Below, one piece after another: positions 12,355 to 61,997 of a stretch of 64,000 nt of DNA. This DNA comes from Escherichia coli (GTDB lineage: Bacteria; Pseudomonadota; Gammaproteobacteria; Enterobacterales; Enterobacteriaceae), in the NCBI GenBank assembly GCA_002099625.1, contig GCA_002099625.1_4857.1. One strand, given 5' to 3'. Numbering within the stretch: the stretch's first letter is position 1; every line of letters starts with the position of its first letter. The translations under genes and the position numbers were made by a program. The notes beneath the pieces are model-generated. The model had not been told where the DNA came from, ran no database searches, and worked only from the letters and a program-made list of their open reading frames with translations.

Positions 12355-12397
12355 CTTAAACAAAAAAAAATAAGTAGGGTGTCCATATGGACACCCT
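12355..12397 (-). terminator. Intrinsic terminator (minus strand)
   Basis: Stem TAGGGTGTCC / GGACACCCTA (12374..12397) followed on the minus strand by a 9-T run; the next gene's RBS follows directly. Confidence 0.55.
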
Positions 12398-12407
12398 AAT
12401 ACGTATT

Positions 12408-14132: not shown

Positions 14133-14653
14133 ATCAGTTTAAAGGTATTACCTTCTAAGCCGGTCGGATGGATAATCATCGCTTCGGTATAGATAGGCTC
14201 TTCTTCTGCAATACGGTGCTCAGCTGCTAAGCCTGAAAGGTGCATGTAGAGGTCTTCATCCATATCCCCGTTAAAAGATGAGGTCAGGATGAAAGGTGTG
14301 GATTCTGCGATTTGCAAAAGCGTTTCTTTGCTAATCTGCATCTCCATTGTCCGACGTCGTTCCATCCAACTGCCTTGTTCGTGGATATACGGGTCGGTAT
14401 TAATGCGAACGACAGGTTCCGTAGACATACCCAGACCACGCGACATCATCTGGATAGCCAGAAGCGTCCACCATTCTTGTTCAGCTATCGGGAAACCGAT
14501 GGCTTTCATTGTACCGTCTGGTTGTGGAACGTGCAATTGTCCACGATGTTCGTCTGGAAACTCGATGATCTTCTGTCCGTTGATAGGAATAAACGGCGGT
14601 TCGTCCGTAGCAACCACCGCTTTAGGCTTGAAGGGAACGACGTTGTCAGCCAT
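14117..14653 (-). CDS. Hypothetical protein (178 aa)
   Basis: ORF in array. Confidence 0.5.
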   Translation of the reverse strand: MADNVVPFKPKAVVATDEPPFIPINGQKIIEFPDEHRGQLHVPQPDGTMKAIGFPIAEQEWWTLLAIQMMSRGLGMSTEPVVRINTDPYIHEQGSWMERRRTMEMQISKETLLQIAESTPFILTSSFNGDMDEDLYMHLSGLAAEHRIAEEEPIYTEAMIIHPTGLEGNTFKLIWVEL

Positions 14654-21664: not shown

Positions 21665-21697
21665 AGGTGTTATCCTATTATGAGATGTTGTCTCGGA

Positions 21698-21710
21698 TAG
21701 ATAATATCTG
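21698..21710. promoter_or_regulatory. Near-palindromic motif TAGATAATATCTG (site 1 of 3-4)
   Basis: In the divergent region between 21134..21664 (minus) and 21741..22211 (plus). Confidence 0.4.
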
Positions 21711-21740
21711 TCTGAGTTCTTTTTGAGATGAGGTTATCCC

Positions 21741-22211
21741 ATGAGCGAAGAAGTGAAATACCAAGCGTTCGACGGAGATGTGGACAACGAAGATTCGCTT
21801 CTCCGCCAAACACAACAGCTACGCGTTAAGCTCGTCACGGATATGGTGAACGACGGTGAAGTACACAAAGACTTAAAAGCCGTCGACCGAATCGAACGCC
21901 TAATCAACGGCATCGACAAACAGGTCATGACGAAGCGGAAAATTAAAGCTGCTGAGAAAGGCGCTGAGGCGACTCAAGATTTGGCCAACAGTTTAAACGG
22001 CTTCTTAATGACCCGTGCAGGCGTTGGTATCAAACGTCACGACGATGAAGAAGATTTAAATAACGGATACCAACCCACCGTCCCACAGATTGCCGCAGTA
22101 CGGCCTCCGAAAGAAGGTGAGTTGGCACCAGTAGGCGAAAAGATTGACGTTGACCAGATCATGGCGTCTGCGTTTGCGAGTCGTCGTCCTGCTGATGACG
22201 ACGAAGACTAA
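21741..22211 (+). CDS. Hypothetical acidic protein (156 aa, C-terminal DDDED)
   Basis: Isolated plus-strand ORF inside the minus-strand block; its 3-prime end overlaps the convergent gene 22159..22887 by 53 nt. Confidence 0.5.
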   Translation: MSEEVKYQAFDGDVDNEDSLLRQTQQLRVKLVTDMVNDGEVHKDLKAVDRIERLINGIDKQVMTKRKIKAAEKGAEATQDLANSLNGFLMTRAGVGIKRHDDEEDLNNGYQPTVPQIAAVRPPKEGELAPVGEKIDVDQIMASAFASRRPADDDED

Positions 22212-25678: not shown

Positions 25679-25776
25679 CAGATGTTACCTTTTTGCAGTT
25701 CTCGTACATAAGGTTTGGGTGATACGTAAAAGACTTACTATGTAGCCCAATCCCTTATATATTCGAGGTTGATAGA

Positions 25777-26532
25777 ATGAATGTTAATCCACTTGCAGCG
25801 TTGTCGGGCTTTGTTGCCAAAGCATCCACGATTCTGCCTAAAGCCTTTAGCGGCTCTCAACAGGAACTCGCGCTGACCACCTATGACGACATGTCTGATG
25901 TGTCCAAGTGGATGCAGCAAGAGAAGTTTTTAAACTTTACCGGAATGCTTGTACCCGTACCACCGGGCTTCAACACGTATGTGATGGACCACATAGAACG
26001 GTTGGAATCTGTATGGGCTGTGCTCCAGAAGATTCAGGAAGGGGTTTTAAGTCCCATCGACAAACGTTTCGGCGCGATGACACACGACCTGGGCATGTTA
26101 ACTCTGCCGATTGGGTTTAAGTTCAAAGACCTGAACTATCCACTGAAAAACATCAATCCGAAAGACCTGGTTGAAAAACTGGCGAAGTCGTACACCAACA
26201 ATGTGATCGACCAGCGTGCGATTGAAAAGACCTACCACAGTGCAGGTGAGATTGACGTTGCGTTTAATCGTGCCAAAGCGCTGAACCTGGAAGTGACTAA
26301 GAAACTCCAGAAAGGTATTGACCGTACAGTTGAAAGCATCAACGTCTCTGTAGACATTATCTCTAATTCACAAGTCCATCCTAATGTGGCGGCAGAGTTA
26401 GTGAAAATGGCTGACATGGGTGCTGACTGGGTTGAGCTGTTCGGACTGTTTATGAAACAGATTAATGAACTGACAGAATGCCTGAACGTAACCGGTGATC
26501 GCCTCAAGACCCTGAAAGCAAACAAAAAATAA
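25777..26532 (+). CDS. Hypothetical protein (251 aa)
   Basis: Plus-strand island bounded by an AT-rich divergent region and a bidirectional terminator. Confidence 0.55.
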   Translation: MNVNPLAALSGFVAKASTILPKAFSGSQQELALTTYDDMSDVSKWMQQEKFLNFTGMLVPVPPGFNTYVMDHIERLESVWAVLQKIQEGVLSPIDKRFGAMTHDLGMLTLPIGFKFKDLNYPLKNINPKDLVEKLAKSYTNNVIDQRAIEKTYHSAGEIDVAFNRAKALNLEVTKKLQKGIDRTVESINVSVDIISNSQVHPNVAAELVKMADMGADWVELFGLFMKQINELTECLNVTGDRLKTLKANKK

Positions 26533-29261: not shown

Positions 29262-29274
29262 TAGATAATATCTA
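29262..29274. promoter_or_regulatory. Near-palindromic motif TAGATAATATCTA (site 2)
   Basis: About 35 nt upstream of the start of gene 28494..29228. Confidence 0.4.
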
Positions 29275-29281
29275 TCTCAGA

Positions 29282-32257: not shown

Positions 32258-32300
32258 TTCAACTCTCCACGAGATTATATATCACACTATTGACTATTAA

Positions 32301-38355: not shown

Positions 38356-38367
38356 TGATAATATCTA
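38356..38367. promoter_or_regulatory. Near-palindromic motif TGATAATATCTA (site 3)
   Basis: Between the macro-domain gene and the secreted SLT gene, about 90 nt upstream of the latter. Confidence 0.35.
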
Positions 38368-38865
38368 TTTGAAACTATTTGGGATGATTTTCTCTGCTTC
38401 CTTTAGCAGTGTGTCCGGTAAATAGAATCGATAAGTCTGCTCCGTGTGTTGTAGTCGTTTCTGTAAGTGTATAAAGATTTCCAATCGCTCATGGTAACGT
38501 AACCAACCGTTAGCCATCCCTAGGGGCGGTATCGCAATCCCTCCTTCTAAGTCTTCCCCTAGTCGCGCCAGCGCATCAATGCCGGACGTGACATAGTAAA
38601 TCTGCGATTTATAGCGAAAATGGGTTTTAGTAGGAAGGAGTATTACCCCTTCCTCAGGATAACAATAGACCTCACCGATAACGATTTGCTCTTTACGACA
38701 TTTCTGGCGATAGTCATTATAAAGCGATGGGAAGCGTTCTCGGCACGCCAAAGCAATGCCCCTTCCCATTGCACCAACACAGTTAACTGTAACGACCTTG
38801 AAGCGCTCAGGCGCGTTAAACAAGTCGTGGGAGATAACGGCCTCGTCGATCAGTTCGAGTGACAT
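38365..38865 (-). CDS. Macro-domain protein, TARG1/DarG-like subclass (166 aa)
   Basis: VTVNCVGAMGRGIALACRERFP matches the TARG1-type C..MGAGIA..F...F motif (recalled from memory); downstream IAIPPLGMANGWLRY fits the second conserved block. Confidence 0.6.
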   Translation of the reverse strand: MSLELIDEAVISHDLFNAPERFKVVTVNCVGAMGRGIALACRERFPSLYNDYRQKCRKEQIVIGEVYCYPEEGVILLPTKTHFRYKSQIYYVTSGIDALARLGEDLEGGIAIPPLGMANGWLRYHERLEIFIHLQKRLQHTEQTYRFYLPDTLLKEAEKIIPNSFK

Positions 38866-41412: not shown

Positions 41413-43912
41413 ATTTGATTATTACCCCTTCGTTATACACCGGTGGAAGCGTCACACCTTCTGGTTCTACGACACAGTAGGTGGCTTCGTTAAGTTTAGA
41501 ATGAACTTCCGCTTCATGCGAAACGACCAGCAATTGAGAAAACTCTCCCGACAACGCCAACGATTTAATGAAGTTAACTAATCGGTTTTTGTGTTCTTCA
41601 TCCATGCCTTCAGATGGTTCATCCAATAACAAAGGATAGTTTTGTAAACCAAGTGCTTTATACGCCGTTAAACGAAACATCATGTTGAAAATAATGCGCT
41701 GTGCTTTTGAACCTTTCTTCACATCCGGCACCAGTTCTTCATGGTCTTTTAATCGCACTGGGAATGTATAATCCAAATCCCCGTCGGTTAAATCGCATGG
41801 AATAACCTGCATCGGATATGCCCACACCATCTCAATATACCGATTCATTAAATCCATGATGCGTGTAATCGCAGAATAGAAGTAACGTCTCAGTAAACCT
41901 TTTTCAGGAGAGACCGCGTTAATAATCAATCTGGCGTGGTGATGCTCTTTAAGCAATTCAGCTTGCTCTTTCTCCAGTTCCGCTAAGCGGGCAATAGCGC
42001 CTTCCATTTGTCGAAAACGTTCGCGCGCCGAGGTGTATGCATCTAACTTCGCTTCACGCCGGTTTAATAACTCGCGGACCACGACATTATTAACGGAAAT
42101 GTTCATTTCCGATATTAGATGCTCGTAACCTTTTTGGAAGCGTTCAATTGCATCCTTGGTTTGTTGCAACTGAGCAGTCTCACGTTCCAACTCACTGGCT
42201 TGTTTACGGTATTCTATTAACCGCCGATTAGCCCCATCCAGCTGTGACCGTACGTGTTCGATTTTCTGACTTAATGCGCCGTCGACGTTACCGACCGCAG
42301 CAACCGCTTCCTGCCACTCTCTTTCTGCTGTTGCAAGTTTTGCCGACTGACGTAGGTACATCATAGCCGATTCCATTTCTTCGGTAAAGGCACGTGCAAT
42401 AGCACCATAACGATCACGTGACGTAGTGAAGATATCCAACTCTTGCAGTTTGCGGAAGAACAAACCCACAACAGGATGATTGGAGTAAGACATGACGATT
42501 TCTCGAATCGTTCGTAAACTGCGAACGTCTTCTTCAATCTCTTTGCGGTCACGCAGAAGACTTTCCATTCCGACTTTCAGCTGTTTCTTCCAACCCTCGT
42601 TATCGTTGATCGCATTCTCAATTTCAGGTAGCGACTTGCGAATACCTGGACGGAATCGGTGGTTACATTGGGGGCAATCGACTTCTGCGGTTTCTAAGAA
42701 GTGCTGACGGTCGTGGTACAAACCGTGTAACACATTCTCGCAGCGCTGCAGTTTTTCAGATAGGTCTGCGGAGGTTAAATCCATACCCTGTAAACGTTTC
42801 TCTAACGCGCCCAGACGCTCTGTTGTCTTTAATTGGTCCAGATGCATAGACAACGGCAAGTTCCAGTTACAGGCGTCGTTTAGTGTGCTCTGAATGCTAT
42901 CCACGTCGATGCGGGTACCTTCAAACAGTTCAGGGAACAACCAATTTTGCTGGAATGTCGAAAGTTCCTGTTTTAAGCTGTCGATGGTTTGCTTTAGGCC
43001 GGCGTGATTACGCATCAGGTACGATTGTCGCGATTCCTCGTCCAGTAGCTGGGACAACTCTTTGTTGTACATACTGCATTCGGTCTCGGCTGAAGCTGCT
43101 TGTTCGCGCCATGCCACTACACGACTTTGAAACTCGTTAATCAGCTCGTCGGAAGGCAGTACACCGTACCGTTCCATGATAAGCTTTACAGCTGGCTGTA
43201 ATGACACAATACGTTTTCGGATACTATCAACCGAAACGGCGTTGTCTAGGCCAGGTCTCGCTTCAATTGTGCGGTTTAATTCCTGAAGCTCAGCATCGAG
43301 TTCTTTCAAACGAACTTCTAAACGTGCACGATCTTCTTCATCATCAACGACGCGCATTTTTGCTTCGCCGATTTTTCGTCCGGTGTGTTCGATGGCCCCG
43401 CTTAAACTGGAAGCGAGTTTACGCAAACGTCGATAGCAGCCAACGACATACGTTAAATCCGATTCTGACATTAACGTAAACCATTTGCGACGAACTTCGG
43501 TAGTGGCGTCAGTTAATAAGGTCTCGCCATTAATTAACTCTTTGATTTCTTTGGTGATTCCGGTTAACTGTTCCACCATGGAGTTGTAAACTTTGGCGTT
43601 TACCGAGTCCACAATAGGGACGCCTTTGGTGATATTGAAAATACTACAAGACAAAGAAGACCCACGTCGCAGGACTTCAAACTTAAGACGGTCGTCCCCG
43701 ACTAACGCGTAGTTAGTGTAAGAACCACCTTCACGGAATTCAGATTTTGCTGGAGCTAAGGGGAGAAAAACAGACAGGAGGCTTGTTTTACCGCAACCAT
43801 TGCCACCGAGGATGATGGTAACGGTTGACTTAAGGGTGAAATCAAACGTTTCGATTTCGTGTAACCCCATACCGGTAAATCCTTTCAAAATGATACGTTC
43901 GACCTTGAGCAT
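41402..43912 (-). CDS. SbcC/Rad50-like SMC-family ATPase (836 aa)
   Basis: N-terminal Walker A GGNGCGKTS, long predicted coiled coils, central CPQC zinc-hook-like motif, C-terminal Walker B / D-loop LLLDEPSEGMDEE and H-loop VVSHEAE. Confidence 0.8.
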   Translation of the reverse strand: MLKVERIILKGFTGMGLHEIETFDFTLKSTVTIILGGNGCGKTSLLSVFLPLAPAKSEFREGGSYTNYALVGDDRLKFEVLRRGSSLSCSIFNITKGVPIVDSVNAKVYNSMVEQLTGITKEIKELINGETLLTDATTEVRRKWFTLMSESDLTYVVGCYRRLRKLASSLSGAIEHTGRKIGEAKMRVVDDEEDRARLEVRLKELDAELQELNRTIEARPGLDNAVSVDSIRKRIVSLQPAVKLIMERYGVLPSDELINEFQSRVVAWREQAASAETECSMYNKELSQLLDEESRQSYLMRNHAGLKQTIDSLKQELSTFQQNWLFPELFEGTRIDVDSIQSTLNDACNWNLPLSMHLDQLKTTERLGALEKRLQGMDLTSADLSEKLQRCENVLHGLYHDRQHFLETAEVDCPQCNHRFRPGIRKSLPEIENAINDNEGWKKQLKVGMESLLRDRKEIEEDVRSLRTIREIVMSYSNHPVVGLFFRKLQELDIFTTSRDRYGAIARAFTEEMESAMMYLRQSAKLATAEREWQEAVAAVGNVDGALSQKIEHVRSQLDGANRRLIEYRKQASELERETAQLQQTKDAIERFQKGYEHLISEMNISVNNVVVRELLNRREAKLDAYTSARERFRQMEGAIARLAELEKEQAELLKEHHHARLIINAVSPEKGLLRRYFYSAITRIMDLMNRYIEMVWAYPMQVIPCDLTDGDLDYTFPVRLKDHEELVPDVKKGSKAQRIIFNMMFRLTAYKALGLQNYPLLLDEPSEGMDEEHKNRLVNFIKSLALSGEFSQLLVVSHEAEVHSKLNEATYCVVEPEGVTLPPVYNEGVIIKYAS

Positions 43913-47083: not shown

Positions 47084-47112
47084 AGTTGAGTTAATCTCTT
47101 AACTCTCACCTA

Positions 47113-47132
47113 GGTAATATATATCTGAGATA
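47113..47132. promoter_or_regulatory. Degenerate variant GGTAATATATATCTGAGATA (possible site 4)
   Basis: Shares TAATAT..ATCTGAGAT with site 1; sits between the stop of 47135..47731 and its terminator. Confidence 0.2.
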
Positions 47133-50782: not shown

Positions 50783-50902
50783 TTGGTATTTCCTTTAAAG
50801 TACACTAAAGTGACCAAAAACTGTTACTAAAGAACAGTTGGTGTTTAAGCGACTGTGGGTTTATACACAATGCTCACTAAGATGACATCTATCTGTAAAA
50901 AC

Positions 50903-51220
50903 TTAGTATACAACCAGTACGATGCAGTCATCGATAGCCAGATTCAGTAATGCGTAGTCGTTACTTAACCGCTGGTAACGCATCCCTTTTTCAAACTGAC
51001 TTAGTTGTTCAGTCGGCATGACGTATACCGCGCTTTGCACTACTCCCGTAAACAGTTCGTTGTAGAACTGGTCTACTTCCCCGACTTTGTAAAAGCGCAT
51101 TCTTTGATTGTTAGCAAAGACGCTGTCTAGCTTCCCGTTACTGGCTTTCTGTACCGCAGTAAAGGCACTGTCTGCATCATTACGCTCTAATGCACTTTTA
51201 ATGGTTTGAAATAAAGACAT
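50903..51220 (-). CDS. Hypothetical protein (105 aa)
   Basis: ORF diverging from the plus-strand gene at 51401. Confidence 0.45.
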   Translation of the reverse strand: MSLFQTIKSALERNDADSAFTAVQKASNGKLDSVFANNQRMRFYKVGEVDQFYNELFTGVVQSAVYVMPTEQLSQFEKGMRYQRLSNDYALLNLAIDDCIVLVVY

Positions 51221-51380
51221 GGTACTGCACTCCTCGTTAGGTTAAAAGTCAAGGTCAACTACAAAAAGGATGTCGGTATCCTACGGATACCTCCGTTTAT
51301 GTTCGCATCCAATACATAAACCCCCTTACCCCCGTACTCTCCTCGATTGTCAAACGATGAGATCGAAACGTAAAAAAGTG

Positions 51381-51390
51381 TAGTATGAGA
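51381..51390 (+). promoter_or_regulatory. TAGTATGA element upstream of a plus-strand gene (candidate promoter core)
   Basis: TAGTATGAGA 11-20 nt upstream of ATG 51401; similar element at 54101..54110 and a TATTATGAG variant at 21675..21684. Confidence 0.3.
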
Positions 51391-51400
51391 GGAGGGTGGT

Positions 51401-52333
51401 ATGAATAAATCTAAGTCAGGGTTGCACATCTTCTCGATAGGTATCGTCGCGGAAGATAAACCTCGTGGTGCCACTCGAGTTAAAGTCATCCCTATCGAAG
51501 TTAACTTTATTAATCCTACAGCTGTCGATGCAACAGAGACACCTGTAGAGAAGCAACACAACAGTTTAAGTGGTACTGACAACCTTACTGTAAAGCAAGG
51601 TAATGCCATCACTGCAAAATGGATGAAGTCCAACAGCAACCGGGTTAACCCTCCGGATGTGAAAAAAGAAGACTACGTAAGAATCTGGCGTATCGGTGAA
51701 ACCGATATGTACTTCTGGGAAGATTTAAACAACAGTAACGTTAAGCGACTGGAAGATGGGGTATACGCCTGGTCTGCTGACCCAGTAAACCAGATGGCCG
51801 ATGACCTCTCTAACGCCTACGTACTGAATATCTCCCCGATGGATGGTCACGTTACTTTACGTACCAGTATGACTAACGGTGAGAAAAATGCGTATTTGCT
51901 CCAGCTGAATACCCGTGATGGGTTTTGCCAGTTAGTGGATGACGAAGGGCGTAAGTTCTACCTCAATTCTCCGGAGGATGACTTAGGGTTTGAAAACGCC
52001 TGCCGGTCGAAGATTAATATCAATAAAGAGGACGCTTTCATTTATGCTAAACGTTCTATTAATCTCGAGACAAAGACGATTAACGAGAAGTGCGAAACTC
52101 GCAACTCTACAGCGTCGAAAAACATGGCATGGACGACTGAAGACTGGAAGACCACATGCCCAACGAATCTATTTACCGGTAACCTGGAAGTAGGTAAGAA
52201 TTTCCTCTATAACGGCAAGGGTGAGGGTAAGGGCACATTCACAGTTACCGAATCGGTTATCGGCGGCATCACCTTTACTCTTCACGTACATACTGGCCAT
52301 GGTCCGGGCAACGACACCAGTACACCGCACTAA
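51401..52333 (+). CDS. Hypothetical protein (310 aa)
   Basis: ORF with GAGGAGGG RBS; TAGTATGA motif 11-20 nt upstream. Confidence 0.55.
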   Translation: MNKSKSGLHIFSIGIVAEDKPRGATRVKVIPIEVNFINPTAVDATETPVEKQHNSLSGTDNLTVKQGNAITAKWMKSNSNRVNPPDVKKEDYVRIWRIGETDMYFWEDLNNSNVKRLEDGVYAWSADPVNQMADDLSNAYVLNISPMDGHVTLRTSMTNGEKNAYLLQLNTRDGFCQLVDDEGRKFYLNSPEDDLGFENACRSKININKEDAFIYAKRSINLETKTINEKCETRNSTASKNMAWTTEDWKTTCPTNLFTGNLEVGKNFLYNGKGEGKGTFTVTESVIGGITFTLHVHTGHGPGNDTSTPH

Positions 52334-52372
52334 GTTATTTACGTGTGTGGGGTATAATGTGACAATAAACCC

Positions 52373-52424
52373 CTAACTGTAACGATAACCCGAATCGCTT
52401 GTGCACAGTTAGCCACTTTTTTCG
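52373..52424 (+). terminator. Possible long-loop hairpin terminator after 51401..52333
   Basis: Inverted repeat CTAACTGT / ACAGTTAG (52373..52380 and 52405..52412) followed by TTTTTT. Confidence 0.3.
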
Positions 52425-52540
52425 CACAAAAGCCGGTTTATTGTCAACTAATTTACGAGTCGGGGCAGTTAATATGCCTCGAAGTACAAGTAGTTGAACA
52501 TAGGGTTCTTCTGCTATCATTTGTTAATGGAGATAAGTAA

Positions 52541-52750
52541 ATGAGCATTCGTGAAATCACCGCAGGCAGCGACGTTTCTGGTCTGGTAGAAGCAGGCACC
52601 GTTCAGGTTTCTGGACTGAGCACCGTTACCGAAGTTACCGAAGCGCTGGCTAAGAAAGCCGAAGCTGAAGGCGGCGTAGCATTTAAAGTTACCGCTTGCG
52701 GCGGCAACAACAAAATGTTCGGCAACGCCATCTATTACATAAACGCGTAA
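52541..52750 (+). CDS. DUF1471 (YhcN/BhsA/McbA-family)-like small protein without signal peptide (69 aa)
   Basis: GTVQVSGLSTVTEVTEALAKKAEAEGGVAFKVTACGGNNKMFGNAIYY matches the enterobacterial BhsA/YdgH pattern GTIS..G....LEE.LA.KA.E.GA..F.IT...G.N..HGTA.IYK (recalled from memory). GGAGA RBS; an in-frame stop immediately upstream excludes a signal peptide. Confidence 0.55.
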   Translation: MSIREITAGSDVSGLVEAGTVQVSGLSTVTEVTEALAKKAEAEGGVAFKVTACGGNNKMFGNAIYYINA

Positions 52751-52761
52751 TCGGCCTGCGG

Positions 52762-52820
52762 GCAAAAAAGATATAGGTACCCTACTCCCGTTGGGAGTAG
52801 GGTTTACCTTTTATTTTTTT
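52762..52820. terminator. Bidirectional intrinsic terminator
   Basis: A-run, stem TACCCTACTCCC / GGGAGTAGGGT (52778..52804), 9-T run. Confidence 0.6.
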
Positions 52821-54073
52821 CGTGCTTTGTAGCGATGCATTTCAACAAATGGCTTACCCCAAGCCCCGAAAGGCCCGACGATTGCCTGCGCGTCGTTTAC
52901 CAAATTCTGGTTATACCAACGCGCGTTCCCCAACAAAAAGTTTTCCCGGTCGAAGAATGTGGTATTAAAGACCCACTCCCCTTCTTCCCAGGTCGGCCAG
53001 TACCCTACACATTTACCAATACGGTTAAAGATAGGACCTAGCGTCTTCTTCCCATCTGGGTCAGTCGGGTCTTTTAAATAGAACCGGCCCCAGATAGCGT
53101 TGTGGCTTATTCCGTGAATCTCTTTTTCGAGATACGGGTTGTCTATCGTAAAGATAAACGAGGATTCGTGCGTCAGCAACGCTTTTAACGTTTCTGAGTT
53201 ACGAATACGTTGAACGGACGTAGGCGTACTTAAATCACCTACACCGATGGCGTCCCAATCGTAATAGCGACGGGTTTCCAATACAATCTTCGCCACGCTA
53301 AGGTTTGGCAGACTCAGCATAATCGCACGGTCGCTGAAATAGCCCTGCGGTGGCAACCAATGCAGAATACCCCCGATGACGAACCCAACGGTTTTCCCTG
53401 TAATGGAATCGGGTAAGGTCAGCATTAACGAAGAATAGTAATCTCGCGTAGTATCGAGTTTGTTCATCGTTAAACTGGATATGGGGTAGGTCTTTACTTT
53501 ACCGATATTTGCCATCACCAGACAGCCAATGTCTGGCGTATTGGCACGCCGCACGATATTACCAGCGCCGGTTAAGCGAACGCCCACTGGGTCAGATTGG
53601 TGAGGTACCCACTGGCCATTGATGTTGTACAGCACCCCAGTACGGTATTTCTCTTTCCACTCATCGTCGCAGACTACAACAACGTCGTGTGCATCATCGG
53701 GATTGAAGTCCTGAGTGTAATGGTACCCAGGAGGGCACAGGTGCGTTTCTACGGGCACATCTGCATTAATAGACTGGTAGTGTGCCTCAACGAATTCGAG
53801 CTTCGGTAGGCCCTTCCCAAGCGTTGGAATCGCGATTCCTGACTTGGTGTTTAACCAATCTTGCAACGTGTCCGTACGGTTTTGTAAATCAGCCAGGTGA
53901 TACTGGCTATAGAAGGTATATTCAGCACCTAGTGCTTCTAGTCCTACTTCGAAAAAGTGGTAGTTAGCACAAAGGGTATTTAAGGGCTGCGTGACATCGA
54001 TGGTTCCCCAAGTTCGGGTGTCTCGAGAGAAGCCAAAAGCGCTGTCGGCCCGCACTTGATAAGCAGTAGTCAC
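52811..54073 (-). CDS. Hypothetical protein (420 aa)
   Basis: ORF between a bidirectional terminator and the plus-strand structural block. Confidence 0.55.
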   Translation of the reverse strand: MTTAYQVRADSAFGFSRDTRTWGTIDVTQPLNTLCANYHFFEVGLEALGAEYTFYSQYHLADLQNRTDTLQDWLNTKSGIAIPTLGKGLPKLEFVEAHYQSINADVPVETHLCPPGYHYTQDFNPDDAHDVVVVCDDEWKEKYRTGVLYNINGQWVPHQSDPVGVRLTGAGNIVRRANTPDIGCLVMANIGKVKTYPISSLTMNKLDTTRDYYSSLMLTLPDSITGKTVGFVIGGILHWLPPQGYFSDRAIMLSLPNLSVAKIVLETRRYYDWDAIGVGDLSTPTSVQRIRNSETLKALLTHESSFIFTIDNPYLEKEIHGISHNAIWGRFYLKDPTDPDGKKTLGPIFNRIGKCVGYWPTWEEGEWVFNTTFFDRENFLLGNARWYNQNLVNDAQAIVGPFGAWGKPFVEMHRYKARKK

Positions 54074-54100
54074 TGGCTGTTTCCTCTAAGGATTCGGGTC

Positions 54101-54110
54101 ATAGTATGAA
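54101..54110 (+). promoter_or_regulatory. TAGTATGA element upstream of the 1237-aa gene
   Basis: ATAGTATGAA about 30 nt upstream of ATG 54141. Confidence 0.3.
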
Positions 54111-54140
54111 CTCGACGCCCTCAGAGAAAAGGAGTGTAAA

Positions 54141-57100
54141 ATGGCTGTCGTCCCTGACCCGCACTATCAAGAACCGGGGAATATGCAGACCGGTGAAGCG
54201 GTAACGCCGATCGGTACTAAGTACCGGATGTTGTTCCCCGCACACGCCCCCTTTTATACCACATCCCTGGTGGTCAAGAGTGGCGGCAAGAAATTAACAT
54301 TAGGTGATGATTACGTCATCACCCATGCGTACGTTACGGGCATGGCACGCACTGGCCATGTTTGTCATGGTGGTGTGTGGATTACCAACCCGAAATATCA
54401 GAGTGGCTTTACACTCGATTACCACGCAATTGGCATCGGTGAAGCCACTGCAGAAATGATCGCCGCAGAACGAGAAGCGAATAAAGATCGCTATCCCGTG
54501 GACTGCCAATGGGATAACGTCATTGGGGATTTATATTTCCCACCGGTCGATATTAAGTTCGACTGGGAAAACTGGCGTGGCGAATCCGAGTTGATGGAAG
54601 CCATTGTTGCGGTTGGCGCTAAGCTCGGTGAAGCGATCAGTCGCGTTGACCCGATTGCTCGTAACACGTTAGACCTTCAATATCGCGCCGGTGTCACGCT
54701 TATCACATCCGAGCAGTATGCGACGTACGACGGTACTGGCGGCTACACGTATAACGCGAAACGTCGTCGTTATTCGTTATCTTACCAGAACACGACGTTC
54801 AATGCGTATTCGTTAGCGGTAAAACACCGTTTACCGAGCATTCCACCGGAAACAACGTTAAACCCAGGCGAGTTGATCGATTGGATGCTCTGTTACGCAA
54901 ACGGTGGGACAAGTATCCTGCGTCTTCAGTTGAAGCAACGCGCGATTTATCTTACCTTAACGACGGCGATTGGTTCTGGTTCGTCTAATTACAGCTATAC
55001 GTTGACGACTGGCCTGACCGATACCGAGTTGGCGGGTGATATTGAGCTTAGCGTGGTCAGACGCGAAGGTAACGGCGTTTACGACATTACCGTTAAAACA
55101 AGCAAGCAAACCGTTAACTACAGCTTTAACGTTGACAACCCACCGAGCGAATTTGCACCAGGGTATCAGAAAACTGATGTCGCAAAATGGTTGAAGTTTA
55201 AATCGGGCGTCAACCTAAACTGGTGGGCAGGTGAGAACGATTACGTCCAGATTCGTTCATTACCAGGCGCACCGGCACCTGACGTTAACAACGACGTGTA
55301 CCAGCTGCTGGTAAAATATCACCAGATTGTCGATAAGCTGTACCGTGATGCACCGGCACATACGCACGTGCCGCGCAAGGATAACCCACATCGCGATTCG
55401 TGGGGCGCAATCCGTGCTTTGGAGAATAACGGTATTGCTTCGGACGCGACACTGGTATACGGAAAAACGCAACCGCAGCTGACAGATTACGTTAACAATC
55501 TGTTGCCGAAACTGTCAACGCTGGCGAATAAGCTTTTACGTTTACCGGCGGCTGCACAGTCTATCAACGGCACTTTCGGTATGAGGCCTGGCCTGACTTC
55601 GATAACGTCAGCAGTGGGTACCGATGAGTCTGAAGGAGTGGGTGCACAATTCACGGTTGACCCGAAGGTTATCCGTTTTATTGGACGCGATTCGCAAACC
55701 GTTAACGCCGGGAACAATCCGATTACATGGCAAGGTGGGGCTAACCAACTCATCCTTTATCCGGATTCCCGTGGATTGGAGTTCAACGGTAAGAAACTAT
55801 TGGACCCTACTACGGTCGGGCCGTACCTGCCGGGTAACGAGTCAGGTGGTGATGGACTGTTTTACGGAACATCCACAGCTACTGTAACCATTAACGGCAA
55901 CGGTATTCAGTCTGTTCCGTTCATTTGTACTTTTGTTCCACCGGAGTCCGACGACCTTGGCCTGATGGCTGTCCGTTTGTTGGCTACTGAATTCGGTGAT
56001 CGTGAGGACTTGGCCGCAACGCCGGCACTCATCAAGAAATTGGATCAGCAGTTTACGGGCAAGTTGGTTGCTGTTAAATCGTACATCAACGACATGCCAC
56101 TGACGAGTTCTATTTACATCGATAAAACTAACTTCGGCTTATCGAACGTACAGAACATCCCAGATGTGCAATTGCCGATTTCCCCGCTCCAACGAGCTGA
56201 GCTGGACAAGTACGCAGTCGTCGGTCACACACACACTCCTGCTGCGCTCGGGATTAAGCGTGCAACAACGACGGAGTTCGGTTTAGTACAGTTCGGCACC
56301 GCGGTTGACGATGCCACGCTGGCATTAGACGGCGGTGAGGTCATCCGACAGGCGGACGCCATCACAGAGATAGAGAAGGTTGCGAAGACAGTCGACTCTG
56401 GTGCTTCAATCAACATTATTCGTTACGGTTTACCCGGCACGGACATCATTGAAAACGGCATCACTTACACCGACTGGATGGTTACTATTAAAGCGAACGA
56501 TTATTTCGTTGGTCGCGAGTACAAAGTACCTCTCTCCACATTTAACTTGGCGGAGCTATTCCCAGCGACGCACGAAGATGCTGAGTTTGGCGTGTATGTT
56601 GACGCGGCGGGCGATGACGGCAAGTACATTATCTACGAAAATCCAAACACGGCAGAAACTGAGACGATGACCAAAATAGGTTCCATCATCACCAGTGAAA
56701 CCGGTGTGGTTTTTGTAGAAATCCGCAACGTGACGCGTTTAGGTGAGTTCCGTGAATTAGGCGAGCATATCGAGGATGATAACGCCCATATTCGTCGGGG
56801 CATGACGCAAGCTGAATTCGGATTTACTTACGGTACTGGCGGGCCTGTGTGGTCCACGGGCGCACCGGGTACAAAACGTATAGATGCCGATTGGCGTTAC
56901 GCGCAGGCTAGCAGCTATACACCTATGTTGAAAGCGGACTACGATCCGGCTGCTGATAAATGGACGTTTAAAACAACCAGTTTATCTGTAACCGATTATC
57001 GTTTTGTCCACAACACATTCCCGATGTTCCAGAATAACGGCATTACCGCAACGTGGACACCTTTAACCGCAACAGCGGACAGTGTGCTAGAAACGGTAAT

Positions 57101-57854
57101 TGGGTGTTGCCATCACTCGGCCACGTTCATGCACCGTATTTCTGTACTCGTCGCACGCACCGCAGGACGTATTACCACTCCAGGCGGCGTGAGCACGTAT
57201 GCGGGAATCGCGGTTAACTACGGACGTGCTGCACAGGTTGTTATTGGTCTGAATGGCGTTACTGGTGCCGGCCATGACTGGACGGCACTTAATCCATCGG
57301 TGCGTTTCAGCCACGCGCGAACAGCGGACGGTATTTCGTTCGTGGGAACGATTAACATCGATTCCAAAACGATTAACTTTGAGCTGACGCTAACCGCGAC
57401 AACAAAGACGCTGAAATACACCTTGCAGTCGACCGGCGAGTCGTGGACTGAGGATTTGTCTACCCGTCTCCGTCCTGACTATATCGACTTGACGAAACTG
57501 ATTACCGATCCGAGTACGCCGATTTATCACGGCGTGGGTGGTTTGTTTAGTTCCGACACAGAAGCGCGTTTGACTTACGCTAACCTGAACACGATGCCGA
57601 CAAAGAATCGTTATTACGCCACGTTCCTTGACTATGCGATTAACTATTCCGGCTTAAACCGCGCAAGATTCTTTACTGGCGTGGTGGATGCAGGTTCAAC
57701 GATCAATGAGATGAACAGCGCGATGTGCAACTATTCATACAGTTCGTTCCGACCAGTGGATACAGGTAAAATTCCACTGGTGGCACACCCGTCCAAGATG
57801 ATGACGTTCAATCCGAAAAACACGTCAGGTCGAACACTTATTATTCGTGATTAA
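54141..57854 (+). CDS. Large hypothetical virion protein (1237 aa), tail-fibre-like
   Basis: Long ORF with AAGGAG RBS, Thr/Gly/Asn-rich composition typical of fibre or receptor-binding proteins. Confidence 0.65.
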   Translation: MAVVPDPHYQEPGNMQTGEAVTPIGTKYRMLFPAHAPFYTTSLVVKSGGKKLTLGDDYVITHAYVTGMARTGHVCHGGVWITNPKYQSGFTLDYHAIGIGEATAEMIAAEREANKDRYPVDCQWDNVIGDLYFPPVDIKFDWENWRGESELMEAIVAVGAKLGEAISRVDPIARNTLDLQYRAGVTLITSEQYATYDGTGGYTYNAKRRRYSLSYQNTTFNAYSLAVKHRLPSIPPETTLNPGELIDWMLCYANGGTSILRLQLKQRAIYLTLTTAIGSGSSNYSYTLTTGLTDTELAGDIELSVVRREGNGVYDITVKTSKQTVNYSFNVDNPPSEFAPGYQKTDVAKWLKFKSGVNLNWWAGENDYVQIRSLPGAPAPDVNNDVYQLLVKYHQIVDKLYRDAPAHTHVPRKDNPHRDSWGAIRALENNGIASDATLVYGKTQPQLTDYVNNLLPKLSTLANKLLRLPAAAQSINGTFGMRPGLTSITSAVGTDESEGVGAQFTVDPKVIRFIGRDSQTVNAGNNPITWQGGANQLILYPDSRGLEFNGKKLLDPTTVGPYLPGNESGGDGLFYGTSTATVTINGNGIQSVPFICTFVPPESDDLGLMAVRLLATEFGDREDLAATPALIKKLDQQFTGKLVAVKSYINDMPLTSSIYIDKTNFGLSNVQNIPDVQLPISPLQRAELDKYAVVGHTHTPAALGIKRATTTEFGLVQFGTAVDDATLALDGGEVIRQADAITEIEKVAKTVDSGASINIIRYGLPGTDIIENGITYTDWMVTIKANDYFVGREYKVPLSTFNLAELFPATHEDAEFGVYVDAAGDDGKYIIYENPNTAETETMTKIGSIITSETGVVFVEIRNVTRLGEFRELGEHIEDDNAHIRRGMTQAEFGFTYGTGGPVWSTGAPGTKRIDADWRYAQASSYTPMLKADYDPAADKWTFKTTSLSVTDYRFVHNTFPMFQNNGITATWTPLTATADSVLETVIGCCHHSATFMHRISVLVARTAGRITTPGGVSTYAGIAVNYGRAAQVVIGLNGVTGAGHDWTALNPSVRFSHARTADGISFVGTINIDSKTINFELTLTATTKTLKYTLQSTGESWTEDLSTRLRPDYIDLTKLITDPSTPIYHGVGGLFSSDTEARLTYANLNTMPTKNRYYATFLDYAINYSGLNRARFFTGVVDAGSTINEMNSAMCNYSYSSFRPVDTGKIPLVAHPSKMMTFNPKNTSGRTLIIRD

Positions 57855-57866
57855 GGAGATTTTTGA

Positions 57867-60800
57867 ATGAAAACGTATCCTTACGATCCTCGGGGTGTAA
57901 ATCCTGAGTGTCACTTCATCGAGGAACGTATCATCGACTCCGACAATCCTAACGATCGGGTGGTGATGCTAGATCATCGCCCGTTTTTCGAAGGATTGGT
58001 GGTAAGGCTCGCCGGCTCGTCCATACCGCTTACCCGCGGGACGGACTATGAGCTGGAGTATGCTTTAACACCGTTGGACGACTCGGTGACGACCCCGGTG
58101 TTTTGCGGGGTGCATCTTATTAACCCTAAACTGCGTGGTGCGGTGGTCTTTGAAGGCCAGATGCTCGGGGGTACGTTTTACAGTGGTTTGATTGAGATGT
58201 TGGATGAGCTAGTTAAGGCACTCAACAATCCAACGGCTGCAGATTGGCTGCTTTTAGGTAATCGTCCTTCCCTGTACCCAGCCACTCCTGCAGCGGTAGC
58301 TTGGTCAGACATGCTGAATAAAAAGTATGTTGCCTCTGCAGTGCATGATGTGGAGTTAGATGCCGGGGCGGCCAACGAGCAGATCCGTGAAAAGCTTACT
58401 GAGCTGAAAGATGCGGTTTTGGGCTTAGGAACTGAAATCGCCACATTTAACTACCCCGGACACATTGCGTCCACTAACCCTCATGGGACTACCGCGGCGC
58501 AGGCCGGTGCGCATCCTGTCAACCTGAAAACGCCAGATACTTTCCTGGCGTATGGAAAGACGTTGCGTCAGTTAACCAACGAGGTCCGTGCACTGGGTCT
58601 GCAACAATCGGATATCGACAAGTACATTTCTAAATGGGTGTCGAAAGAATCCAAAGGGGTGTTTAATGCGACGATATCCGGTACTCGTGCCCTGTTCCGT
58701 TCTCCTGCTGGTGAATCCGAAATTGTGTTCTCTGCTGAGGCATTCACTCTTAAATCTAATGGCTCTGTTGTGTTGGCGTGTGGGTATGCCGACACTACTG
58801 GAACCGTCCGGTTTATGGAGTGGAAAGCAGGCATCAATACATTACGTATTGAGTCGACTGGCAGTGCCTTGGGGATGGATAAGCTGACGCTTAATGGTAC
58901 GACGTTACTGACCACAACTGCTCTCATGGGCTATCAACAAGACCCTGGTACCAGCGGTGGTACCGTTGACCCGGATGACAACAAACTGTACATTAGCGGG
59001 GTGAACGGCATTACTTTCACGGGTAAAGGGTCAAAAGCCGATCCCGTCACCGGGAAGGTCACAGCCAAACCCGCGACGACCTCTGAACCTGGCGTTGTGA
59101 CGTTGACCGATAAGCCGAGCGATGTAGTCAAAGGACAAGCAGCCACCCCGGCTTCGCTCTTACCATACGAGGGTGATCTGTCTTCGTACGTCAGGAAGAC
59201 AACGCTGCTGAATAACCAGCCGATGGACACCGGTAGCCGAACGCTAACGAAAAAGGATTTGGGTCTGGACTTGGCTGATAACACAGCTGACGTCGATAAA
59301 CCACTTTCTGATGCGTTGGCAGAAGCAGTTACCGATCTTAGTGATAAAGGTCACCATCACAACTTCGCCGATTTACAGATCCCAACGGCTTCTCAAACAG
59401 TTCCCGGTATCGCTCGATATTCTACCAACCTAAATAGCTTGTCGGATAATCGCGGCGTTACCCCGAACGTACTGAACGATTTGTCAAAACGTTTAGACGT
59501 AGTTGCAGCTGCGCTAGCAAACGCGAAAGAGGACACCGTGACCGATTTTGCCGCTGTGCGCGGTAAGACTTGGACTGTGGGATCTACACGTACCACAGTC
59601 GCCGTAACGGATTTGAATTATTTCTATCTGTTAAATGGTGCACGTAAAGAGGGGACGGTATCTGGTTCGATAGACCTGCAAACCACACCGATGTTCCAGT
59701 GGTTCTCTCCAGATAACCGTATGGAAAGAACGTGGCAGAACGCGGTAATTAATACCGGTGCCGGTATTGATTTTAGTGGGTTTGAGGTTGCCGTCCCGGA
59801 AACGAACTACGGTGCGCAGATTGGTTTAACGACAACCGGAATGGGTGATTTGTCAGTCGTTAACCTCTTGGCGAAAACGTGGGTTCGTTGCGACTCTGGT
59901 AAGCTGCGGATTTGGGTTCGTGGCGGTGGTGCTGTTTCTGTTTATCTGGACGGTGAAATTATCGGTGCGGGTATTACAGAAGCGGGGTATCTGGAGGCGA
60001 CTGTCAAGGAGGGATGGAAGCAACACTGCTTAGCGTTCCGTGCAGAGTGTAACGATAGCGCTAAAGCGGCTGCAATCCGTTTCACAATCTACGACGGTGA
60101 CTTTGCGGTTGGGGCCTCTGATAAAAACACCAAGGTTGCTCGCCTTCAGGAGTTTGTTAAGACTCCGAACGGTTTAAGGCATTACCTTTACGTGAACATG
60201 ATAACCGATGCGTTATATTCACGCGCCGAACCTATTGTGGACACGGAAGGTATTAACCTGGAACGTGGGTATATCGGCCACATTGATGTCCCTGACGCGG
60301 GATTGGTTGCAGGCACGACTTACGAGTTTGAAACGACATTTGATTTTGGCATGGCGTCCGAACTTAAACGGCACTTCGAAACACGTCTAGCACACGGGGT
60401 GAGTAACACCGACTGGTCGTTGACGGATAACCCGAAAATGCTGCCGTTGAATAAGGTTGATCCATTACCTAAACAATGGCTGTATGCGTATCCAACTAAC
60501 CCGTCTGTATCTGGGGATAACCTCGTTCGTTTAGATCGTGGGTTATTTGATTATAAATTCGTAAGTGCCACCTCGCTCAGGATTCTTCTTGCGGCGGTTG
60601 TTTCCACTGAAAACGCGTCCCCGTATTGCTGGTTTACACCAAGCAACCCGAAAGAAAATGGAATGGCGACATTCGAGGGTTCGGTGGTAATCGACACTGA
60701 TTATCCTGAAGTCCCAAAAACCTCGGACGTCGAAGTTTCATTAAACTTCATGGCCCCTTCTGCTGATGGGAAAGGTAAAACCAGAGTCCTGCGGTGGAGT

Positions 60801-61997
60801 AACTCCCACACCAGTTTAAACTGCGGCTTTATTGCTGCGCCGTACGATAAACCAACCGGAAGAATTGCCACCACACAATCCAGCGTTACTAATACGCTGG
60901 TTGATGCTCCTCGTGTAATCAAGAGCGTGGATGTTCAGTCGCCTGACTGTTTAGACTATCTCCCGGTTTCAATCGCTAGCGAGTTCGCAGCCATTGGTTC
61001 GCGCTGGCTTATTCGTTATCGCTATATTGTTGATACGCAGATACTGCGAATATCGTCGATTAGTAAGATAGGTGGGCAGGCTTCGGCGACTGTTCGTGAG
61101 ATAGAATACGACATTCCGTTTGACGCGATTGATTATTTTAAAGGTGGCGCTTTATCGATTGGTGTTACTGGCCTCGAAACTGGTGAAGGCGTCACAATCA
61201 ACCACGGTTTGATGGACCCTTCCACAACAGAAGTGGATTTAAATCGTTTCCATTATCTACGCTCGCTATTTGAGTCGTATATTGAGCGTTCTCCGGACAG
61301 CCAGTCTTCTGGGCATGAGGAGATGTCGATATCAACCGTCGCGTTCGCGAACTTTGGAGATAACGTCGATAACCCGGTTACGGAATACATCACGATGTCT
61401 GCTGCAAGTGAGGGTTATCCGGAACTTGCACCGAACGGTAAACTCCCCGCACCGTTTTACAAAGGGCTGCAGAAACGTGGTGCTCCGCTACTTGAGTCGG
61501 CTCCTGCAGACTATACGTCTAACGGTGGTGAATGGAAGTACGGCTTTATGCGGGCTTATCGCCCAACTCAAAATGAGCGTTTTGTGTCGGTAAATGGGAC
61601 AATGCTCTCTAACTACCCTGGATATATCATCGTGGGTAGTGAGAAAATTCCGGGTAATGTTATACCTTTCAGTGCATCGACAACAGCTGTTCAGATATCT
61701 GGGACTCTTGCCCGCACGAAACCGATGCAGCCAATTCACATCGTGTTCGTGCCTCCGGAAGGTTCTGTGCCGCCGCTGCAAGCGAAGTTCACTATTAACG
61801 GTGTGGGTAGTAGTGGTAATCCGATGTTCGTGATTACTGAAACGACACCGGTGGAACTTCGCACGGGTGGCGAGACGATTCTCATTGAGAAGCGTAATCC
61901 ATTCCACATCCCCACCAGGACATGGGATTGGATTTTACAAACGTTGGATACTGAACGTAGAAACGAAGGCAACAACTCGGGTGAGTGGGCCTCTTAG
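57867..61997 (+). CDS. Large hypothetical virion protein (1376 aa), tail-fibre-like
   Basis: Long ORF 12 nt after the previous one, AAGGAG RBS; followed by tandem hairpins. Confidence 0.65.
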   Translation: MKTYPYDPRGVNPECHFIEERIIDSDNPNDRVVMLDHRPFFEGLVVRLAGSSIPLTRGTDYELEYALTPLDDSVTTPVFCGVHLINPKLRGAVVFEGQMLGGTFYSGLIEMLDELVKALNNPTAADWLLLGNRPSLYPATPAAVAWSDMLNKKYVASAVHDVELDAGAANEQIREKLTELKDAVLGLGTEIATFNYPGHIASTNPHGTTAAQAGAHPVNLKTPDTFLAYGKTLRQLTNEVRALGLQQSDIDKYISKWVSKESKGVFNATISGTRALFRSPAGESEIVFSAEAFTLKSNGSVVLACGYADTTGTVRFMEWKAGINTLRIESTGSALGMDKLTLNGTTLLTTTALMGYQQDPGTSGGTVDPDDNKLYISGVNGITFTGKGSKADPVTGKVTAKPATTSEPGVVTLTDKPSDVVKGQAATPASLLPYEGDLSSYVRKTTLLNNQPMDTGSRTLTKKDLGLDLADNTADVDKPLSDALAEAVTDLSDKGHHHNFADLQIPTASQTVPGIARYSTNLNSLSDNRGVTPNVLNDLSKRLDVVAAALANAKEDTVTDFAAVRGKTWTVGSTRTTVAVTDLNYFYLLNGARKEGTVSGSIDLQTTPMFQWFSPDNRMERTWQNAVINTGAGIDFSGFEVAVPETNYGAQIGLTTTGMGDLSVVNLLAKTWVRCDSGKLRIWVRGGGAVSVYLDGEIIGAGITEAGYLEATVKEGWKQHCLAFRAECNDSAKAAAIRFTIYDGDFAVGASDKNTKVARLQEFVKTPNGLRHYLYVNMITDALYSRAEPIVDTEGINLERGYIGHIDVPDAGLVAGTTYEFETTFDFGMASELKRHFETRLAHGVSNTDWSLTDNPKMLPLNKVDPLPKQWLYAYPTNPSVSGDNLVRLDRGLFDYKFVSATSLRILLAAVVSTENASPYCWFTPSNPKENGMATFEGSVVIDTDYPEVPKTSDVEVSLNFMAPSADGKGKTRVLRWSNSHTSLNCGFIAAPYDKPTGRIATTQSSVTNTLVDAPRVIKSVDVQSPDCLDYLPVSIASEFAAIGSRWLIRYRYIVDTQILRISSISKIGGQASATVREIEYDIPFDAIDYFKGGALSIGVTGLETGEGVTINHGLMDPSTTEVDLNRFHYLRSLFESYIERSPDSQSSGHEEMSISTVAFANFGDNVDNPVTEYITMSAASEGYPELAPNGKLPAPFYKGLQKRGAPLLESAPADYTSNGGEWKYGFMRAYRPTQNERFVSVNGTMLSNYPGYIIVGSEKIPGNVIPFSASTTAVQISGTLARTKPMQPIHIVFVPPEGSVPPLQAKFTINGVGSSGNPMFVITETTPVELRTGGETILIEKRNPFHIPTRTWDWILQTLDTERRNEGNNSGEWAS

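Follow-up and report, generated by a model that had tools for sequence, protein, structure and literature searches.

In a 64,000-nucleotide (nt) stretch of contig GCA_002099625.1_4857.1, filed under Escherichia coli and hereafter called the window, short sequences with a TATG core stand ahead of several plus-strand genes and raise the question of whether they mark transcription starts and, if so, for which polymerase. An earlier note on this DNA had pointed to TAGTATGAGA before position 51401 and ATAGTATGAA before 54141, with a TATTATGAG variant before 21741, as an element shared by plus-strand genes; it described a TATG core as typical of late promoters in phiKZ-like phages and proposed late starts for structural genes. 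All three sequences are present: TAGTATGAGA at 51381-51390, 11 nt ahead of the ATG at 51401; ATAGTATGAA at 54101-54110, ahead of the ATG at 54141; and TATTATGAG at 21676-21684, ahead of the ATG at 21741. This description of the core, too, is correct: the phiKZ late promoter is 5'-T(-3)ATG(+1)-3', with transcription starting at the G. We consider it probable, at roughly 0.78, that the elements are initiator-type promoters for the phage non-virion multisubunit RNA polymerase (RNAP), belonging to the phiKZ late class.

The 8-kb stretch around the element is 98.0-98.5% identical to the Salmonella phage SPN3US and its close relatives (genus Seoulvirus), and, judged from its sequence, the window is part of an SPN3US-like, phiKZ-related Salmonella jumbo phage. 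SPN3US is a phiKZ-related jumbo phage that carries two multisubunit RNA polymerases. The plus strand of the window corresponds to the minus strand of SPN3US at roughly 148.8-212.8 kb; the genes on it are virion genes and those on the minus strand are mostly non-structural. We use the original SPN3US gene numbers, which equal 266 minus the RefSeq number.

A shared word and its position relative to genes

Counts of the literal words are at the level of chance in the window. The exact 8-mer TAGTATGA, common to the sites at 51381 and 54102, is found twice against 1.45 expected (47 of 100 shuffles have at least two), and TAKTATGA four times against 3.03 expected; we therefore replaced the literal word by TANTATG. 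When the upstream regions of all plus-strand gene clusters are aligned, five have TA-N-TATG in common. The proposal of a shared element upstream of plus-strand genes thus stood as regards position and orientation, and the common unit turned out to be TAnTATG(A) rather than TAGTATGA. This word is rare in the window, with nine copies against 22.9 +/- 5.0 expected from dinucleotide shuffles, all 100 of which contain at least nine. Its plus-strand copies (21676, 25736, 51381, 52470 and 54102) lie without exception in non-coding DNA directly upstream of plus-strand genes, non-coding DNA making up 6% of the window. The minus strand contributes a sixth copy (54100-54106), directly upstream of the gene gp171 on that strand, and the window holds six sites with TATG on the coding strand immediately upstream of a gene. 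The signal resides in position and conservation, not in the bare count.

These sites differ in their surroundings. The TAGTATGA at 51381..51388 on the plus strand is, from sequence and conservation, a predicted initiator-type promoter for the baseplate gene gp173 (51401..52333, plus), with a predicted start at G 51387; its 14-nt leader would include GAGGAGG as Shine-Dalgarno sequence. The second TAGTATGA, at 54102..54109, is predicted to serve the virion genes gp170-gp169-gp168 (54141..57854, 57867..61997 and 62093 onwards, plus) from G 54108 with a 33-nt leader; on the opposite strand, TACTATG(A) at 54100..54106 is the predicted promoter of the tail gene gp171 (52811..54073, minus), with a start at 54100 and a 27-nt leader. 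The two elements overlap as a palindromic core, CATAGTATG at 54100-54108, within the 67-nt divergent spacer between gp171 and gp170, and the 54102 element is hence one half of a bidirectional CATAGTATG, which refines the earlier reading of it. Two more sites in the window belong to the TAnTATG set: TACTATG at 25736..25742 (plus), a predicted promoter for the head-associated gene gp214 (25777..26532, plus) with its start at G 25742 and a 35-nt leader; and TAATATGC at 52470..52477 (plus), predicted to start at G 52476 ahead of a small DUF1471/BhsA-like gene (52541..52750, plus). The remaining candidate, TATTATGA at 21676..21683 (plus) before gp220 (21741..22211, plus), fits the consensus and is the weakest member of the set.

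The earlier note had suggested a genome-wide search for enrichment upstream of genes, and in SPN3US the enrichment is found. The genome contains 33 copies of TANTATG against about 90 expected from a first-order Markov model. By the RefSeq tables, 13 of them precede an annotated same-strand start by 14-65 nt and a further one does so by 165 nt; two are start codons themselves. Our own open reading frame (ORF) calling misjudged some sites, owing to GTG starts and small spurious ORFs, and the counts were checked by hand against those tables; with the calling itself, 12 of the 33 are in a promoter-compatible position against a background of 2.2% (binomial p = 3e-12). Among those of the 4096 XXNXXXX words that have at least eight promoter-compatible copies, TANTATG ranks second by the fraction so placed, behind only the Shine-Dalgarno word TANGGAG. 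Of the offsets tested between -13 and -4, only -6/-5 shows an enrichment of TA among promoter-compatible TATGs (12/49 vs 21/925, odds ratio 14, p = 1e-8). A logo of 16 sites shows conservation of T-6, A-5, T-3, A-2, T-1 and G+1, with A and then C preferred at +2; it is flat elsewhere between -36 and +26, with no upstream element resembling a -10 or -35 box. Behind the SPN3US sites stand the genes for the tail sheath (gp256, predicted start at SPN3US 229224), the baseplate (gp173), the tail (gp171 and gp170-168) and the head (gp214), and another site precedes the gene that opens the gp138-154 family of head paralogues. Among these, Thomas et al. (2016) assigned gp171 and gp168, along with gp203 and gp238, to the tail and gp214 to the head, gp171 being tail-associated and essential (PMC5105663).

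Conservation across genera and avoidance inside genes

We compared the sites with relatives from three genera at 66-72% nucleotide identity: Seoulvirus (pEa_SNUABM_29, SPAsTU), Erskinevirus (phiEaH2) and Machinavirus (ChrisDB, Huxley, pSal-SNUABM-04). The gp173 site reads CGTAAAAAAG-nn-TA(G/A)TATGA in all six genomes while its flanks diverge. The site before the DUF1471 gene reads gTTA-N-TATGc, N being A in the window and C, G, C, T and A in five of the six relatives, with flanks that cannot be aligned; in pEa_SNUABM_29 the TATG is retained and the TA lost. The gp214 site reads cgtaaaaagactTAGTATGtagcc in Huxley, with N changed from C to G and the remainder unchanged. Across sites, therefore, TA-N-TATG is constant while N takes all four bases. 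The sheath and head-paralogue sites are also retained in Huxley, and of the 24 copies in Huxley at least 11 have an orthologous counterpart in SPN3US.

The divergent gp171/gp170 spacer we aligned from 10 genomes by adding Wellington, CR5, Phobos and the Vibrio phage pVp-JHP1101. The mean column identity of this spacer is 54%, yet TCATA-N-TATGA is invariant in 10 of 10 genomes, which represent at least five named genera and the unclassified Vibrio phage, with a central N of G, A or C; apart from this word, conserved blocks are confined to the two ribosome-binding sites. In pVp-JHP1101, at 27% protein identity, CATAnTATG is still present. In more distant genera TATG persists, and the -6/-5 TA is not always retained at unidirectional sites.

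The rarity of the word has its counterpart inside genes. Against 100 synonymous-codon shuffles within each of 226 SPN3US genes, TATG is found 616 times in the sense orientation where the shuffle mean is 940 (z = -15.6) and 215 times antisense where it is 387 (z = -11.8), that is, at 0.66 and 0.56 of expectation; TAnTATG is found 11 times against 52 (z = -7.1) and 4 times against 19 (z = -4.0), respectively. In the same shuffles AATG and TTTG come close to expectation, and TATC exceeds it. A control of 41 genes from E. coli K-12 gave TATG ratios of 0.93 and 0.85. Thus, SPN3US shuns TATG on both strands far more than a host-like genome does, which is what selection against spurious start sites would produce.

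Several further copies of the word in SPN3US lie elsewhere. Intergenic TAGTATG copies at 14450 and 2788, outside the part that matches the window, face no annotated protein gene: one runs antisense into gp245 from a convergent spacer, and the other lies ~140 nt upstream of a tRNA-like feature. They may give rise to non-coding or antisense transcripts; Huxley has no TAnTATG at the position matching the copy antisense to gp245. Three in-coding TAnTATG copies, at 42885, 69040 and 69772, are kept identically in Huxley (45807, 70051 and 70788) and precede virion structural protein 1 and the gp192/major-capsid pair by 190-520 nt. These are possible internal promoters, their conservation being confounded by coding constraint.

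A promoter reading and its rivals

In phiKZ, all four bases of the late promoter T(-3)ATG(+1) are required in vitro, bases on either side have little influence, and no more than the five-subunit non-virion RNAP is needed for in vitro transcription from late promoters (PMC4666361). In a 2026 cryo-electron microscopy study, the non-template TATG is held in a pocket of the beta-like subunit GP123, whose F151 stacks on G+1, and the sigma-like GP68 opens the DNA upstream (PMC12809450). SPN3US encodes homologues of the phiKZ non-virion polymerase subunits gp55 (E = 5e-39), gp71-73 (2e-29), gp74 (9e-39) and GP123 (3e-20). In the GP123 alignment, the pocket residues F151, D329-S330-H331 and S402 are kept in SPN3US, and Y406 is replaced by W. 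The promoter reading proposed earlier for structural genes thus gains support from the kinship with phiKZ, the polymerase homologues, the virion genes downstream and the footprints across genera.

By analogy with phiKZ, we picture initiation as follows. The sigma-like subunit would open the DNA, and the GP123-homologous beta-like subunit would then fix the start site by holding T(-3)A(-2)T(-1)G(+1), now single-stranded, beneath its lobe. The G of TATG, taken on the non-template strand, would be the first transcribed base, and the leaders, 14-65 nt long, would bear the ribosome-binding site of the virion gene. In Seoulvirus, Erskinevirus and Machinavirus the word would extend to T(-6)A(-5)N T A T G, with a preference for A at +2, and from the overlapping words of CATAGTATG transcription would set out in opposite directions, with starts 8 nt apart, into gp171 on one side and gp170-168 on the other. 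As to the added -6/-5 TA, one may speculate that the altered residues of the GP123 pocket or the sigma-like subunit could explain it. The stronger version of this proposal, that the polymerase of SPN3US, Erskinevirus and Machinavirus reads not the four-base TATG but T(-6)A(-5)N T A T G A, and that TATG has been purged from both strands against spurious starts, is in our estimate evenly balanced. We infer the start at the G, the involvement of this polymerase and any role for the -6/-5 TA; the late timing would follow from the analogy with phiKZ and from the virion nature of many, not all, downstream genes.

Could the host polymerase be reading these sites instead? TAnTAT would then be a -10 hexamer recognised with sigma-70, with the host enzyme starting ~7 nt downstream, and the forms TAGTAT, TATTAT, TAATAT and TACTAT do retain the key -10 positions (T1, A2, A5 and T6 of TATAAT). 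Several observations make this very unlikely. When 50800-54300 was scanned for sigma-70 promoters, none of the sites proved to have a -35 element at 16-18 nt spacing, the sole hit lying at 50882-50909, and the logo has no TG extension one base upstream of the hexamer. The G after the hexamer, which sigma-70 does not need, is invariant across genera, and the avoidance inside genes hits TATG whereas TATC is over-represented. Moreover, the development of phiKZ is independent of the host polymerase (PMC4666361). Pure accident, in which TAGTATGA would happen to fall twice near gene starts, finds some comfort in the near-expected count of the exact 8-mer; the exclusive placement of the plus-strand TANTATG copies in the small non-coding share of the window, the genome-wide positional enrichment and the invariance across genera in diverged spacers leave it scarcely credible.

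A conserved signal other than a promoter, such as an operator for a phage regulator or an RNA processing site in longer transcripts, has a real point in its favour, in that the core at 54100-54108 is a perfect 9-base-pair (bp) palindrome kept in 10 genomes, as an operator might be. Most sites, however, are non-palindromic and strictly oriented to the downstream gene. The 67-nt divergent spacer needs two promoters, and the word is its only conserved block apart from the Shine-Dalgarno sequences; avoidance on both strands of coding DNA suits a start signal at the DNA level better than an RNA site; and the word is identical to the experimentally defined promoter of the related phage phiKZ (PMC4666361). 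On balance we think such a signal improbable.

Other observations weigh against the initiator-type promoter reading or parts of it. Our literature search found no 5'-end map or time course for SPN3US-like phages, and phiKZ middle promoters can carry a TATG at the start site, so that the timing may be middle rather than late (PMC4666361). In the GP123 pocket, N398, Y399, S144 and K158 differ in SPN3US. A depletion specific to TAnTATG was considered and rejected: other contexts of TATG are about equally depleted (TTNTATG to 0.25 and TCNTATG to 0.28 of expectation), and hence the avoidance is of TATG in general and not of the 7-mer. Each -6/-5 TA in the bidirectional site is forced by the TATG of its partner, and the invariance of that site is therefore no independent evidence on the extension. 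The site at 21676 is not conserved: SPAsTU has TATAATGAG, phiEaH2, ChrisDB and Huxley have no TATG there, and the conserved block in this spacer is an early-type motif on the opposite strand (21699-21713, see below). The TATTATGAG variant of the earlier note accordingly fits the consensus but is kept only in the closest relatives. The class also misses some virion genes, since the structural clusters starting at 1011 and 33369 have no upstream TATG; conversely, gp172, gp220, gp159/160, gp91, gp93 and gp65, which lie downstream of sites, are without known function, and the description late structural thus fails to cover all the genes concerned.

Predicted transcription units, other motifs and known systems

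The sites in the second half of the window, together with a hairpin at 52779-52803, allow a tentative map of transcription units. This hairpin, of 11 bp, GC-rich and flanked on both sides by T-rich tails, lies between the convergent DUF1471 gene and gp171 and is a likely bidirectional terminator; the scan of 50800-54300 picked it up as terminator-like, and the fold of 52760-52815 has -24.4 kcal/mol (z = -4.1), a value equalled by none of 200 shuffles. On the plus strand it likely closes the unit of gp173 and the DUF1471 gene, and on the minus strand that of gp171. One predicted unit would run from 51387 across gp173 and the DUF1471 gene, the latter with an additional start of its own at 52476, to the hairpin; another from the minus-strand start at 54100 through gp171 to the same hairpin read in reverse; and a third from 54108 into gp170, gp169 and gp168.

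A different, strong motif of 15-25 nt, cAGATAGATATTAyCTnnGTGA, precedes many of the mostly non-structural genes on the other strand. Copies are found upstream of minus-strand genes at 21699-21713, 29263-29277, 38356-38370, 47112-47126 and 50880-50894. Its 15-nt core has 10 matches in the window with up to three mismatches against 2.95 expected, and ~20 copies on the plus strand of SPN3US. It is distinct from TAnTATG, resembles the AT-rich early promoters of the group, and is most likely the clade's early promoter, served by the virion RNAP. As for the two virion clusters mentioned above, gp239-237 (start 1011, plus) has no TATG on its strand in 300-1010; gp203-202 (start 33369, plus) has none up to 130 nt upstream and no conserved one farther upstream. 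The spacers upstream of these clusters are only 18-29 nt long. Both must be served by another promoter class or by promoters inside the divergent genes.

Three further sequences were noted in intergenic DNA. An A-tract, ACGTAAAA(A)AG, lies at 51368-51378 and 25724-25733, ~9-19 nt upstream of the predicted gp173 and gp214 starts, and is kept across genera. As a general part of the motif it was rejected, for among the TAnTATG sites it precedes only these two; a third copy, at 32300, is the A-run opposite the T-run of a minus-strand terminator. It may be an auxiliary element for a subset of sites. A C-rich block, CCCCCTTACCCCC at 51320-51334 (G-rich on the minus strand), occurs once in the window, in the divergent spacer upstream of the minus-strand gene at 50903..51220, and is kept in six genomes of the three genera. 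Finally, the perfect intergenic palindrome GGGTGTCCATATGGACACCC at 12375-12398, which is centred on a TATG in either strand, resembles a terminator hairpin more than a promoter.

The phiKZ-type promoter class is already known and the finding is in this sense largely expected; the SPN3US-type sites are very probably new, unmapped members of it. In the literature searched, no late or middle promoters were described for SPN3US-like phages. These sites carry a clade-specific TA extension, and there is a conserved 9-bp bidirectional form. According to a 2020 review, promoters of this kind in jumbo phages that encode RNAPs escape bioinformatic prediction; those of the SPN3US type can be predicted from their sequence, the word being longer, tied to position, conserved and shunned elsewhere. 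The sites supply a testable map of transcription units for an established genetic model, the SPN3US amber mutants, and the -6/-5 TA offers a handle on why the polymerase passes over most TATGs. If the longer initiator is real, this clade would supply a specificity determinant that work on phiKZ has not found. Likewise, the palindrome CATAnTATG would then amount to a minimal bidirectional promoter of 9 bp, kept in phages from those of Salmonella to those of Vibrio, and a compact promoter of this kind could be used in phage engineering.

Among known systems, the late promoters of phiKZ (Ceyssens 2014; Yakunina 2015; de Martin Garrido 2024/2026) come closest. They have the same TATG core immediately upstream of virion genes and, like the SPN3US sites, have no upstream elements of the -10/-35 type; SPN3US, a relative, encodes homologues of four of the polymerase subunits, the TATG-binding GP123 included. 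The two differ in that the SPN3US word extends to the -6/-5 TA with A preferred at +2, whereas the phiKZ model promoter p119L is TGCTATG, with no A at -5. TATG is said to be frequent in the phiKZ genome (PMC4666361), whereas it is strongly avoided in SPN3US genes; and the start sites and timing of phiKZ have been mapped, whereas those of the SPN3US-type sites are predicted. In the phage 201phi2-1, ONT-cappable-seq revealed a phiKZ-like late motif, mostly upstream of structural genes, and early, middle and late classes that co-exist (PMC11512511). Its orthologous gp215/gp216 spacer has TATG only on the strand facing gp216, unlike the bidirectional SPN3US site.

The late promoters of the phage AR9 are, like the SPN3US sites, short promoters read by a jumbo-phage non-virion multisubunit RNAP. 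Their word, however, is A(-11)ACA-N6-U A/G(+1), read as uracil on the template strand by a sigma-like subunit, and it differs in the word itself, in its position (-11 to -8) and in the strand; nothing resembling it was seen at the SPN3US-type sites. The sigma-70 -10 element (TATAAT), in turn, shares T1, A2, A5 and T6 with TAnTAT and, by analogy, the reading of the non-template strand. The -10 element lies at -12 to -7, whereas TAnTATG overlaps the predicted start, needs the G, and stands without a -35 or TG partner.

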